A stretch of DNA of 64,000 bases from Candidatus Woesebacteria bacterium GW2011_GWB1_39_10 (GCA_000993205.1 LBVU01000003.1:161008-225007), one strand, 5' to 3'. Counted from the stretch's first letter, positions 21,187-24,762 are shown. Numbers and translations are program-made. The notes: generated by a model not told the origin, from the sequence alone.

Positions 21187-24100
21187 TTATTTCGCTTCAT
21201 ACGCATTTGGATTAACCTTTGCAACTTCAAGAGGTTTGGTGGTAATTAACTTATCCTCTTCAGTTGAAGCAACAACACGGATTGGAGCATGGTGGGGTCC
21301 AGCAAAAAATATTCCTTCTCCGACATTTGCGGCAAGAAGTAAATTCTTTTCTCCCTGGGAAAGATAAAAAACTTCTCCTATTTTATCGATGGCCGCGGGA
21401 GATTGTTTAAGTAGAACCTGTAGGGCGCTGTTTGTAACAATTGCTTTCCCTATATCTTGCCCTAAGAAGTCCTCCACGTCCTGTGTAATTGTTGTTAAGC
21501 CCAGGTAATATTTACGTGCCCTTTTAACGACACTCCAAAGGAATTGGGCGGTATCAGGGTATTTCATCATGTGCCAGGCCTCATCTACGATTAAGATGCG
21601 TTTCTTGATGTCTTTTTTGACTCTTGTCCAAATGTAATCGAGAATAATAAACATGGCGATCGGGCGAAGAGTTTCCTGCAAATCTTTAACGGAAAAAACA
21701 GTAAAAGGATTTGTAATATTAATGTTTGTTTGTTTATCAAAAATTCCGACAAACGACCCCCTTACAAATTTTTCGATGCGGGCGGCAAGGTCAAGCGCGT
21801 CAGGTACTTCCATCCCGATTAAGGTTTTGTACAAATCTTCCATGAGCGGTGGTTCTTTGCCTTGAGTATCCGGGTCCATAGTGATTCCCTTGTTGCGGTA
21901 GGTCATGATTAGGGCCCTGTCAAGCATTGCTTCCTGAGTTGGGGTAATTACACCCATGATTACTTTCATTAGGGAATGAAGCGAAAGAATTTTAATTCCC
22001 AATTGGTTTTCTCCCTCTTCACGGATTTGGGCCAAGTCAAAGGGATTGATTTTTGCGGGAGCATTAAAAGAGAAGGAAATATATTCTCCTCCTACCGCGT
22101 CAGCCAGAGTTTTATATTCACTTTCAGGGTCAATTATAATGGCCTCGGTTCCCGTCATAAGACTTCGGAGGGCTTCAAGTTTAACAAAGTATGAATTGTG
22201 AACAAAAAGCCCTCCATATCCGGCCAGAAACACTTCATTTTTAACTTGTAAATCGTAGACATAGGGGTGTTTTGATTCAGTTTTTTCAATTTTGACAATT
22301 GGATCCCAATATAGATCCGATTTTGCGAGAGTTTCAAGGCAGATGACCCTTTCTTTGATTTCTTTTAGTTTTGCAATTTTTATCCGATATGCATCACTTA
22401 TAAAATCTCTTGCTTTAATTAATTTTTGATACCTTGCATTTGCGTGTTTGTATAGTGTAGTTGACCAAAGCGAGGAGTCAAATTTTTGTAGAGATTTTCC
22501 GGTAAATTTGAAACATCTATAGAGAGATCTTCCTACTTCGTCAATCTCAACCGTGTATCCATGAGTAATTTGAGCCGCCGTTAACGCGTTTTTTGTATTT
22601 GGATAAATACCACTTCGCATTGTGGCCCAAGACTTATTAAGATTTTTCCAAAGTAGAGCATTGATTTTTTTATTCTTGCCGCATTCAATAATTTCCTTTA
22701 TTGTTGGTAGAGCCTTTAACTTGGAAAGACCGTCTTTTTCGAGGCTTTCTATTTCGTAGATCCTGTTTTTGATTTGTAATACCATATTTAACAATTCATT
22801 CCTTGAAGGATTGAAAGACCCAAGTTTTACCTCTGAAAACTTTTTAGGAGCCGGATTTTCTGAATCGTAAATATCTTTATAAATTTCTTTAAAAGTGGAT
22901 TGTAATTCAGGAATAATGTCAGTATTGGTATTTGAATTTTTAAGCAGTTTTAATGAAGCTTGATTTTTTCTTTCAGTAATAAAACCAATTCGATTTATGT
23001 ATTTTTTTATACTATCCTGACCGGAAATTGAGATTCTATAGTATTTTCTTTTTGTTTTGGCAATTGTGTTAGTTGCGGCTTTTAATCTCGTTTTTATCCG
23101 AGCAACTATTCCAAAACGAAGAAGTAAATAGGCAAGGTCTGACGCTAAGTTTTTAGATTTTGTTGTAGCTGTTATTTCGTGATCTTCTACCCCACCATCA
23201 CCCTCAAAATAGGCTTTTAGATATGTTGATATTTGTCGATTTGAAAGACTAAAAACAAATCCAGGAACTCTTTTTTCTCCTGAATTGCCACCCCCTCCGT
23301 TGTTTATCACAAATGAAGAAAATTTTCCTCCTCTGATGCTATACCCTCGGATCTCTGTGCGTTTTGGATAGTTGTAAACAGGTGATATTTTATAATTTAA
23401 CTGTTTTGCGCAGTTTTTGATTAGATTCAAAATCTCTTGATCTGTGTTGGAAATAGTAACAAAATCGTTTTCTATATGACCCTCGCTGGTCGTGAGGCCA
23501 AGAAGGGTCAACAATTCTTTGTTTATAATATGTCCTTGATATTTATTGATGTTCTTTTGCCCGCCTTTTATCTCGCGGGGAACAGGAATGTAGTTTCCAA
23601 CAGTTATGCTTTCACCTTTTGTGGCAACAATTTTTCCGTTTTTCAAACAAACTAGACAGTGGTCTTTCGTAATTGTTATTTTTCGGCCACTAGCGGTTAT
23701 TATTTTGTATAAACTTTTCGGTGAAATTTTTCTGGCGGCTATTTCTACGTTGGACCATACACCTTTTAGGTTTTCGTCAAATGAAAAAACTTTTATTCCA
23801 GGTTCAACAATTCCATCAATTTCCTTCTCCAGTTTTATATGTTTTTTATTTTTGAACATAGTATCGATCAATTTTCCAATACTTTCCCTTTTTATGTCTC
23901 CTTTTTTATTTTGATATAAAACTTTTGTATCATAACTAGTGCTTTTACCAGCGCCAGATGTAGCAAATATTGTCATGTTTGAATTCTGTAAAGAAAACCT
24001 GTCAAAAATAATAAAAGATTCGTTTTGAGAATTTATGCCGTATAAAACTCCCCGGTCACTTGAAAGTTCGGAAGATGTAAGAGGAAAAGTTGTGGCCACA

Positions 24101-24762
24101 CTAGTTGTGTCCATATTCCTTGTAACATTCAACCTGTCCATACCAAACGGAGCGGTGGATAAAAATCCTGCTTCTTGATCCAGGATGGCATGTTTGCTGA
24201 CTATTAAGAGCGAACCGAGTTGGGATTCAATCTGTTTGGTTACATGATTTAATTCTTCTACAGAACTTGCAGGAATAGTTATATAGAAACTGAATTCATA
24301 AAATCTTTCGATGCCTTTAACAAGTTGTTCCTGAAGGGATCTTGCGTCTTCAAGTTTGGCTTGTGTTGAAGGATCTACAATTCTTCCCCTCTCAATGTCT
24401 GTGGAAATCTCCGCCTCCATTTCTGCGATCTTCCTTCTCAAATCATCTAAAACCGATTTTCCGTCAACCGGATAGATATAAAAAGAAATATCCAGGCTTG
24501 AATCAAAGTTGACCACCGGCTCAAGCCAACCCGGGGAGACAAATCTGGGGTAGCCTCCTACAAAAATGGTTCTGAAATAAACATCGTTTATTTTGAAATA
24601 GTCAAAGTCAATTTCTATCGATTGGGGAGCAATGGCATCAAAAACAGTTAGCCCCTGAGAAATGGCGACGTTTGGACTAACCAGTTTAGGTTTGGTCTCG
24701 GGTTGAGGGGTTGGTGTAGGTATGTTATTTATTGGTGATTGATTGTCGTTTGTAGGTTTCAT
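21187..24762 (-). CDS. VirB4/TrbE/CagE-family type IV secretion ATPase interrupted by a large intein
   Basis: N-terminal VirB4 region (FRTIFVGGYPRFVSPGWLEPV); Walker A FATSGAGKS followed by an inserted roughly 580-aa segment; the extein resumes SYFVKLEALRSLMTGTEAIIIDPESEYKTLADAVGGEYI; Walker B ILIVDEAWHMMKY and LTTITQDVEDF. Confidence 0.85.
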   Translation of the reverse strand: MKPTNDNQSPINNIPTPTPQPETKPKLVSPNVAISQGLTVFDAIAPQSIEIDFDYFKINDVYFRTIFVGGYPRFVSPGWLEPVVNFDSSLDISFYIYPVDGKSVLDDLRRKIAEMEAEISTDIERGRIVDPSTQAKLEDARSLQEQLVKGIERFYEFSFYITIPASSVEELNHVTKQIESQLGSLLIVSKHAILDQEAGFLSTAPFGMDRLNVTRNMDTTSVATTFPLTSSELSSDRGVLYGINSQNESFIIFDRFSLQNSNMTIFATSGAGKSTSYDTKVLYQNKKGDIKRESIGKLIDTMFKNKKHIKLEKEIDGIVEPGIKVFSFDENLKGVWSNVEIAARKISPKSLYKIITASGRKITITKDHCLVCLKNGKIVATKGESITVGNYIPVPREIKGGQKNINKYQGHIINKELLTLLGLTTSEGHIENDFVTISNTDQEILNLIKNCAKQLNYKISPVYNYPKRTEIRGYSIRGGKFSSFVINNGGGGNSGEKRVPGFVFSLSNRQISTYLKAYFEGDGGVEDHEITATTKSKNLASDLAYLLLRFGIVARIKTRLKAATNTIAKTKRKYYRISISGQDSIKKYINRIGFITERKNQASLKLLKNSNTNTDIIPELQSTFKEIYKDIYDSENPAPKKFSEVKLGSFNPSRNELLNMVLQIKNRIYEIESLEKDGLSKLKALPTIKEIIECGKNKKINALLWKNLNKSWATMRSGIYPNTKNALTAAQITHGYTVEIDEVGRSLYRCFKFTGKSLQKFDSSLWSTTLYKHANARYQKLIKARDFISDAYRIKIAKLKEIKERVICLETLAKSDLYWDPIVKIEKTESKHPYVYDLQVKNEVFLAGYGGLFVHNSYFVKLEALRSLMTGTEAIIIDPESEYKTLADAVGGEYISFSFNAPAKINPFDLAQIREEGENQLGIKILSLHSLMKVIMGVITPTQEAMLDRALIMTYRNKGITMDPDTQGKEPPLMEDLYKTLIGMEVPDALDLAARIEKFVRGSFVGIFDKQTNINITNPFTVFSVKDLQETLRPIAMFIILDYIWTRVKKDIKKRILIVDEAWHMMKYPDTAQFLWSVVKRARKYYLGLTTITQDVEDFLGQDIGKAIVTNSALQVLLKQSPAAIDKIGEVFYLSQGEKNLLLAANVGEGIFFAGPHHAPIRVVASTEEDKLITTKPLEVAKVNPNAYEAK
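22195..23940 (-). other. intein (Hint domain plus LAGLIDADG homing endonuclease) within the VirB4-like gene, about residues 275-856; boundaries approximate
   Basis: Block-A-like start TSYDTKVL right after GAGKS; block B TKDHCLVCLKNGKIVATKGESITVGNYI; LAGLIDADG-like LLGLTTSEGHIENDF and YLKAYFEGDGGV; terminal LAGYGGLFVHN followed by S (the +1 nucleophile). Confidence 0.75.

Follow-up and report, generated by a model that had tools for sequence, protein, structure and literature searches.

Introduction

How can a secretion ATPase work when 583 residues are inserted into the middle of its Walker A motif? This question is raised by a gene in a 64,000-nucleotide stretch of DNA (hereafter the window) from Candidatus Woesebacteria bacterium GW2011_GWB1_39_10 (GCA_000993205.1, LBVU01000003.1:161008-225007), an ultra-small bacterium belonging to the candidate phyla radiation (CPR, or Patescibacteria). 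An initial annotation had proposed that the gene encodes a VirB4 ATPase of a type IV secretion system (T4SS), split at Walker A by an intein of about 580 residues that combines a Hint splicing domain with a LAGLIDADG homing endonuclease. Profiles for all three parts, Hint, LAGLIDADG and VirB4, matched the product. We conclude with considerable confidence that the gene encodes the precursor of a Patescibacteria VirB4-type T4SS ATPase, which carries a class-1, Ser-dependent LAGLIDADG intein between Walker A residues K273 and S857.

Novikova et al. (2016, Mol Biol Evol 33:783, PMC4760082) listed five inteins in VirB4 (COG3451) of Firmicutes and Proteobacteria and 21 in archaeal VirB11, and they stressed that inteins recur at the P-loop of ATPases, a catalogue that bears out the remark in the initial annotation that the P-loop is a known intein site. 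The T4SS of Patescibacteria comprises VirB4, TrsD, PrgI/VirB3 and VirB2-like genes, which frequently lie beside the replication origin, with TrsD described as adjoining VirB4; in a Saccharimonadia strain, epibiotic growth is reported to require T4SS genes (PMC12102498).

Results

A predicted VirB4-like ATPase with an insertion in its P-loop

The reading frame of the virB4 precursor is unbroken over 3576 nt (coordinates of all features are given in Table 1). Its product matched NF045971, the NCBIfam model for VirB4-like conjugal transfer ATPases of the CD1110 family, in two stretches (352.6 bits, cutoff 325), and residues 865-1147 matched the TraG P-loop model PF19044 (85.7 bits), while the classical VirB4, TraC and TrbE models all scored far under their own cutoffs. 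A Walker B motif, RILIVDEAW, occupies residues 1055-1063 of the precursor, and its ILIVDEAW part (1056-1063) is invariant in the aligned orthologues. On these profile matches we classify the gene as a VirB4-like T4SS ATPase of the CD1110 family, in a clade of Patescibacteria with affinity to the MPF_FATA class; the protein is predicted to hydrolyse ATP and to take part in secretion or DNA transfer. The motifs quoted in the initial annotation (FATSGAGKS, TSYDTKVL, TKDHCLV, LLGLTTSEG, YLKAYFEGDGG, FVHN|S and YFVKLEAL...IIDPESEY) are all present in the translation.

The boundaries of the insertion were defined by aligning the precursor with five intein-less orthologues (P0001, P0002, P0003, P0073 and P0099). 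The alignment contains one clean gap of 583 residues, between K273 and S857. On its C-terminal side, S857-A864 are invariant, and on its N-terminal side F266-K273 are invariant save for one substitution. The orthologues read ...FATSGAGK|SYFVKLEAL... with no additional residue, and the insertion itself begins with S-TSYDTKVL and ends with ...GGLFVHN. The insert had earlier been placed at about residues 275-856; its C-terminal end stands, and its start is moved one residue upstream to S274, because a start at T275 would leave a product one residue longer than every orthologue. The Walker A serine of mature VirB4 is thus the +1 residue, Ser857. The Walker A sequence SGAGK|S, invariant in the orthologues, is formed only once the intein is spliced out.

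The flanks rejoin cleanly across the P-loop, as the initial annotation had anticipated. In silico removal of residues 274-856 yields a VirB4 of 608 residues, which matched NF045971 as a single stretch (residues 34-579 to model positions 181-735), and the score rose from the 352.6 bits of the precursor to 374.3 bits. When this spliced form was searched against a collection of 5.8 billion proteins, the best match was a 617-aa Candidatus Woesebacteria VirB4 (P0001; 96% identity, 100% coverage), and the 120 best matches were all intein-less Patescibacteria proteins of 569-673 aa with the source names VirB4 or TraC. The junction of the spliced product aligns with the orthologues without a gap, and the C-extein shares 99.7% amino-acid identity with the intein-less allele L002. 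The GC content of the intein is 33.6%, compared with 40-42% for the exteins; reduced GC is typical of elements of this type.

The insertion carries a complete set of splicing residues

The precursor matched the intein splicing model PF14890 (65.2 bits, E 7.8e-18, cutoff 35.8; 65-68 bits across the searches), the intein N-terminus model TIGR01445 over residues 276-371 (40.5 bits, cutoff 24.5) and the intein C-terminus model TIGR01443 over residues 834-857 (21.7 bits, cutoff 15.6). S274, the first intein residue, is the nucleophile directly after K273 of the N-extein; block B corresponds to T365-K-D-H368 in precursor numbering; and the +1 nucleophile is the Walker A serine S857, invariant in the orthologues. 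Moreover, the C-terminal part of the Hint domain could be aligned to the C-termini of PI-PkoII and the TFIIB mini-intein, and Foldseek matched the modelled Hint domain to the mini-inteins 5o9i, 6rpp and 4e2t as well as to full inteins. By every sequence- and fold-level criterion applied, the element is classified as a class-1 Ser-dependent intein.

A LAGLIDADG endonuclease core and an additional helical domain

Both LAGLIDADG motifs are intact: LLGLTTSEG supplies the acidic residue E154 and YLKAYFEGDGG the acidic residue D249, each followed by Gly. The LAGLIDADG_3 model PF14528 matched the precursor at 69 bits (E 4.2e-19) and the excised intein at 70.4 bits (cutoff 22.5), and PF05204 matched the excised intein weakly. 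An AlphaFold2 (AF2) model of the intein, built from 17 homologues (mean predicted local distance difference test score 85.2), contains in order a beta-rich Hint half (intein residues 1-121), a double LAGLIDADG core (about 142-331), an all-helical segment (347-541) and the closing Hint strands (545-581). The alpha-beta-beta-alpha-beta-beta-alpha pattern occurs twice in the modelled endonuclease core.

A Foldseek search of the PDB returned endonuclease-containing inteins as the top matches, led by TliVMA (7qss, E 6e-20) and followed by PI-PfuI (1dq3), PI-PkoII (2cw7) and PI-SceI (1vde and others); mini-inteins and the free LAGLIDADG enzymes I-DmoI and I-Tsp061I were matched further down. By sequence, the closest solved entry was PI-PkoII (phmmer, E 4.3e-19). 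The solved endonuclease inteins share the Hint and double-LAGLIDADG architecture with the window's intein (Foldseek E 6e-20 to 1e-8, probability 1.00), but they differ in sequence (14-21% identity) and in host, residing in vacuolar-type ATPase, ribonucleotide reductase and DNA polymerase. The query-normalised template modelling score against them does not exceed 0.56 because the helical domain of about 195 residues has no counterpart in them. This domain had no Pfam match, and its structural neighbours were only generic helical bundles; it is kept across the CPR VirB4 intein family. That it binds the target DNA would be a guess.

Homologous inteins recur in CPR VirB4 at two sub-sites

A scan of one genome per GTDB species identified 177 stretches encoding relatives of the intein, of which the best 80 were kept. 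The intein-bearing frame is a VirB4-type gene in 49 of these 80 (L005-L053; one labelled 'archaeon'), and VirB4 is interrupted by a homologous intein in the representative genomes of at least 46 further CPR species, in at least 40 of them at the same GK|S site. Their titles name Woese-, Ames-, Collier-, Gottesman-, Kaiser-, Uhr-, Magasanik- and Yanofskybacteria, Paceibacterota and Saccharibacteria. The related frames are uninterrupted and about 1150-1590 aa long where a contig end does not cut them. A protein search with the intein alone returned 28 matches. The closest 18, which are 38-100% identical where aligned, are all Patescibacteria VirB4 precursors or pieces of them, with junctions GxGK|[S/C] and HN|S[YF][FM]VK.

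In an alignment of 47 CPR VirB4 inteins, including the window's, T92, D94, H95, D564, H582 and N583 are invariant. The endonuclease acid E154 is kept in 44 of the 47 inteins and D249 in all of them, and the first intein residue is Ser in 43, Cys in three and Thr in one. The last is L036 (MGHG01000011.1, Woesebacteria), whose intein seems to start with Thr (GAGK|TVEKNEPVL...), which is unusual, or else has a boundary shifted by one residue.

A second sub-site (site b) lies five codons 5' of the first (site a). It is occupied in L024, L025, L026, L027, L031 and L053 and in protein P0129, which read FGK|S...HN|SG[SG]GKS in place of GxGK|S...HN|SY. Even the closest site-b inteins are just 47-50% identical. 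The P-loop of the site-b lineages reads GK-SGxGK-S, so that the GGN-AAR|TCN context is present twice, and the site-b intein suggests an ectopic move to a look-alike site.

Many 'MAG TPA_asm' records (L005, L008, L013, L018-L020, L023, L026, L027, L029, L034 and L053) are titled 'uncultured Gammaproteobacteria bacterium' and encode typical Patescibacteria VirB4 with the intein; these titles look wrong.

Intein-less alleles and the insertion site

A syntenic intein-less locus is found in a complete Woesebacteria genome (CP066686.1), where VirB4 has 617 aa. In extein closeness to the window, L005, in which the intein is present (83% amino-acid identity), is comparable to L002, in which it is absent. 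At 0.70, synonymous conservation in the L005 intein lies between the values for its exteins (0.52 and 0.74). Fused at the junction, the flanks of the window's virB4 read ...GCTACATCTGGCGCTGGTAAA|TCATACTTTGTTAAACTTGAAGCC... and those of the L002 allele ...GCTACCTCCGGAGCCGGAAAG|TCATACTTTGTT...; on the 3' side of the junction, the two agree at all of the first 25 nt. Synonymous sites in the flanks vary freely over more than 30 alleles, so no homing-site consensus longer than GGN-AAR|TCN could be derived.

No other intein was found in the 64-kb window: tblastn searches with intein and extein matched virB4 itself only, and a Pfam scan of 20 other large open reading frames (ORFs) of the window revealed no Hint or LAGLIDADG domain.

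The T4SS gene cluster around virB4

In the window, the PrgI/VirB3-like gene is followed by a 228-aa gene, virB4, a 970-aa gene, a 192-aa gene, an AAA_14 ATPase gene, dnaN and dnaA; the order in CP066686.1 is PrgI, 228-aa gene, VirB4, 984-aa gene, dnaN and dnaA. Because dnaA and dnaN lie 5-8 kb from virB4, the cluster is origin-proximal. The 228-aa ORF of the window had no Pfam match, and its syntenic 228-aa orthologue in L002 weakly matched the TraC-like model PF26593; the gene is probably a TrsD/TraC-N-like component of the Patescibacteria T4SS. A 984-aa orthologue of the 970-aa membrane protein occupies the same position in L001-L003, and this protein is a possible channel component. In the array of small paralogous membrane proteins, the T4SS pilin model PF18895 matched five ORFs at 33.8-43.7 bits (cutoff 26.6), a sixth at 17.2 bits and the seventh not at all; their translations are alike. 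As far as these assignments go, the predicted cluster matches the published Patescibacteria T4SS layout.

Table 1. Features of the window, with positions counted from its first nucleotide.
Feature	Position	Strand	Basis
VirB4-like ATPase precursor ORF, intein-containing, complete, 1191 aa + stop	21187..24762	-	ORF list; NF045971 profile
N-extein, aa 1-273, ending ...FATSGAGK (K273), first part of Walker A	23944..24762	-	alignment with intein-less orthologues
Intein, precursor aa 274-856, 583 aa	22195..23943	-	orthologue gap; PF14890 and PF14528 on excised segment
Hint N-terminal half, intein aa 1-125; block A S1-TSYDTKVL; block B T92-K-D-H95	23569..23943	-	TIGR01445; model strands
LAGLIDADG homing-endonuclease core, intein aa ~140-332	22948..23526	-	PF14528; AF2 model; Foldseek
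All-helical additional domain, intein aa 347-541 (~195 aa), between endonuclease core and block F	22321..22905	-	AF2 model
Hint C-terminal part, intein aa 545-583; block F YVYDLQV (D564); block G GGLFVHN (H582, N583)	22195..22311	-	TIGR01443; conservation
C-extein, aa 857-1191 + stop, opening with +1 nucleophile S857	21187..22194	-	orthologue alignment; PF19044
970-aa polytopic membrane protein, directly downstream of virB4	18270..21182	-	ORF; DUF7507 match sub-threshold
228-aa gene directly upstream of virB4, probably TrsD/TraC-N-like	24835..25521	-	orthologue match only
PrgI/VirB3-like membrane protein, partner of VirB4	25967..27028	-	PF12666 PrgI 27.6 bits, cutoff 27; syntenic orthologue in L002
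Seven small membrane-protein ORFs in tandem array, 13 kb from virB4	38138..41166	-	PF18895 T4SS_pilin (VirB2-like)
23S_rRNA_IVP gene interrupting the pilin array	40356-40721	-	
Two more 23S rRNA-intervening-sequence protein (IVP) genes (four-helix-bundle, bAvd-like)	25566-25970, 27070-27453	-	
dnaA and dnaN, with the AAA_14/DUF4143 ATPase gene next to dnaN	13635-16392 and 16389-17633	+	
Toxin-antitoxin-type genes around the T4SS genes	27501-28489, 37489-38118, 41206-41637	+	
Transfer-messenger RNA (tmRNA) gene, tag AKSYDSASDYAGNFAFA	46690-47057	+	
tRNA cluster, four tRNA-Ser and one tRNA-Arg	48117-52418		

Several smaller genes accompany the cluster. The three IVP genes are scattered between T4SS genes; two of them flank the PrgI/VirB3-like gene and are absent at the syntenic intein-less locus L002, and the AAA_14/DUF4143 ATPase gene beside dnaN is absent from the syntenic region of CP066686.1. 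The toxin-antitoxin-type set consists of DUF6922 paired with AbiEii, another AbiEii-like gene and a toxin resembling PemK/MazF.

Discussion

The residues for all four steps of the class-1 splicing pathway are present in the precursor. In the pathway that we propose, the Hint domain would fold after translation from its two halves (intein residues 1-125 and 545-583), S274 would undergo an N-O acyl shift, S857 would attack the resulting ester, and N856 would cyclise with the help of H855, whereupon the exteins would be ligated. Two products are expected: VirB4 of 608 aa, its GAGKS P-loop restored, and the released intein of 583 aa. The endonuclease, in the free intein or in the precursor, would most likely cut intein-less virB4 at GGN-AAR|TCN, and recombinational repair of the cut allele would then copy the intein in. 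Presence/absence polymorphism among close relatives and the related copy at the look-alike GK|S site five codons upstream are indirect evidence of such homing.

Several points weigh against this account. We infer autocatalytic splicing from the residues present, and cleavage of an intein-less allele with subsequent homing likewise from sequence; inteins with Ser1 and Ser+1 are frequently slower than Cys inteins. The first LAGLIDADG acid is lost in three of the 47 aligned relatives, and endonuclease decay thus occurs in the CPR VirB4 intein family. At the insertion site, the 21 nt 5' of the junction hold six consecutive synonymous differences between the window and L002, so that L002 is no more than a putative target for cleavage. 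Moreover, intein identity and extein identity are strongly correlated (Pearson 0.79, Spearman 0.73 over 1081 pairs; 0 of 999 permutations reach this value), and prolonged vertical inheritance would account for this no less well than active homing would. Finally, tblastn detected no second virB4 copy in the 64-kb window, the sole region searched; since the window holds none, the T4SS can soundly be expected to depend on VirB4 splicing.

The intein family seems to have resided in CPR virB4 for a long time, diverging for the most part in step with the host gene and being lost or regained in patches, a pattern consistent with a homing cycle among close relatives combined with frequent precise loss. 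We also considered recent transfer of the intein between classes and rejected it for the sampled copies, given the correlation above and the finding that inteins were marginally closer than exteins in only one of the 1081 pairs.

Could the intein instead have been domesticated by its host? Splicing that depends on temperature, substrate, stress or host contact would hold VirB4 and the T4SS off until needed, and the endonuclease and helical domain would then be retained for a role beneficial to the host rather than for mobility. The insertion does disable the P-loop until splicing, the splicing residues are kept in all 47 copies, and the family is old and co-diverges with the host gene (Pearson 0.79), with hardly any pair in which the inteins are closer than the exteins. 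The helical domain of about 195 residues is conserved, family-specific and without a known fold match. Furthermore, it has been argued that P-loop inteins are possibly selectively retained (Novikova et al. 2016, PMC4760082), and T4SS genes were reported to be essential for epibiotic growth in the Saccharimonadia strain (PMC12102498). However, most CPR VirB4 by far lack the intein, among them the 120 nearest orthologue clusters without exception and one orthologue at 96% identity, and the intein is thus dispensable; its nucleophiles are Ser rather than Cys, so that the known redox-switch mechanism is inapplicable; and the conserved LAGLIDADG catalytic residues are the signature expected of a still-mobile selfish element. 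We consider domestication unlikely, and equally unlikely is conditional splicing in which the helical domain senses a signal or binds DNA or a partner. If true, conditional splicing would complete the P-loop of the T4SS ATPase under certain conditions only and so provide a post-translational on-switch for the machine behind the epibiotic lifestyle.

It is very unlikely that the intein no longer splices, which would leave virB4 disabled and the T4SS non-functional. Reduced genomes do carry decaying genes, and a near-identical fragment from another sample (P0136, 375 aa, ending at precursor residue 375) reads ITIPKDH for ITITKDH, with the block B Thr replaced, 12 residues before the fragment end. 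In the window, however, the 3576-nt frame is intact, the canonical splicing residues are complete (S1, TxxH, block F Asp, HN and +1 Ser), the exteins are 96-99.7% identical to functional-looking orthologues without relaxation, and the neighbouring T4SS genes are intact as well. A free-standing homing-endonuclease gene, or a foreign fragment, misassembled in frame into virB4 would likewise give an interrupted ATPase, and it is true that an earlier public assembly of the same organism breaks inside the intein, at window position 22504, and that many database relatives are fragments. But the insert keeps the frame exactly and has Hint blocks A and G at its two ends, and the same architecture recurs in at least 46 further genomes that different studies assembled independently. 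The earlier assembly itself (LBXI01000006.1, GCA_000995365.1) corresponds to window positions 13187-22504 with 100% identity over 9318 nt, its contig end lying within the intein; the fusion of virB4 and intein is therefore not an artefact of one assembly, and we regard misassembly as extremely improbable.

In earlier assemblies, whether of the same organism or of a near-identical one, the intein is broken from both sides, at 22504 and, in P0136, at residue 375. These breaks and the P0136 variant could reflect population heterogeneity, with intein-plus and intein-minus alleles or intein variants, or a loss of coverage at low GC together with an end-of-contig error.

Returning to the reading that we prefer, a LAGLIDADG intein in a VirB4-type ATPase, how does it compare with known systems? 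The initial annotation had called an intein in the secretion ATPase of a reduced-genome organism unusual, which overstates the case: five VirB4 inteins were known (PMC4760082), and homologues occur in at least 46 other CPR genomes. The virB4 element is real, yet it is an ordinary kind of selfish element. The VirB4 inteins of Novikova et al. share with it the host family, a T4SS VirB4 ATPase, and the element class, but theirs reside on mobile elements of Firmicutes and Proteobacteria, whereas the window's resides in a chromosomal, origin-proximal Patescibacteria T4SS; the two are compared here at the level of host family and element class.

Inteins of replication factor C (RFC) have Cys1. The P-loop intein of the archaeal RFC small subunit (NF003157/PRK04132; RFC-S site a, Novikova 2016) has the GK|[S/T/C] sub-site and the combination of Hint and LAGLIDADG_3 in common with the window's intein, although its host is an AAA+ clamp loader, unlike VirB4. 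NF003157 is colinear with precursor residues 267-857, that is, Walker A and the whole intein (model positions 43-598, 100.2 bits); unrelated exteins keep this score far under the cutoff for the family, which is 1103.

The nearest relatives outside CPR VirB4, at 25-39% identity, are CPR/DPANN-type inteins from metagenomes in P-loop nucleoside triphosphatases (NTPases), namely AAA+/TPR (P0139), KaiC-like (P0141), ABC (P0142) and SMC-like (P0143) proteins, together with those in DPANN-archaeal VirB4/HerA-like ATPases (L044, L054-L058 and L061). One further host protein among the more distant relatives appears MCM-like, judging by its P-loop sequence. All of the CPR/DPANN-type NTPase inteins lie after the Walker A lysine, and wherever the sequence extends to the C-terminal junction, the intein ends in HN with S or T as the next residue. 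They differ from the window's intein in mostly having Cys1 and in residing in other host proteins, and the segment between their LAGLIDADG core and block F is shorter, so that most of the helical domain is missing.

LAGLIDADG homing endonucleases such as I-ShaI have also been described in CPR rRNA introns, and homing elements are common and active in CPR (PMC11270868). These enzymes come from the same organismal group and belong to the same endonuclease superfamily, but they are mostly single-domain LAGLIDADG_1/2 proteins in group I introns, whereas the window's is an intein-borne double-motif LAGLIDADG_3 enzyme in a protein-coding gene. Our literature searches found no paper on inteins in CPR or Patescibacteria VirB4, and the word 'intein' is absent from a dedicated paper on the Patescibacteria T4SS (PMC12102498); related sequences are public, with automatic labels like 'intein/homing endonuclease'. 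Inteins in VirB4 and at P-loops had already been reported in 2016, and the CPR VirB4 intein is a small undescribed family with two sub-sites.

With this finding, the known P-loop inteins gain a well-defined family that includes a variant of the sub-site, which is a modest biological advance. Protein engineering and meganuclease work may take an interest in the Ser1/Ser+1 intein, in its endonuclease and in its helical domain. Intein-bearing virB4 genes are often fragmented or misnamed in metagenomes, many being labelled only 'LAGLIDADG homing endonuclease' or 'hypothetical', and surveys of CPR T4SS can consequently under-count or truncate VirB4. What makes the element mildly interesting is its host, the key secretion ATPase of a reduced-genome epibiont, together with the helical domain, the pair of sites a and b, and the trouble that it causes for annotation and assembly. 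For the organisms themselves, some Patescibacteria would have to splice in order to obtain a working ATPase for the T4SS, a system thought to be central to their epibiotic life.

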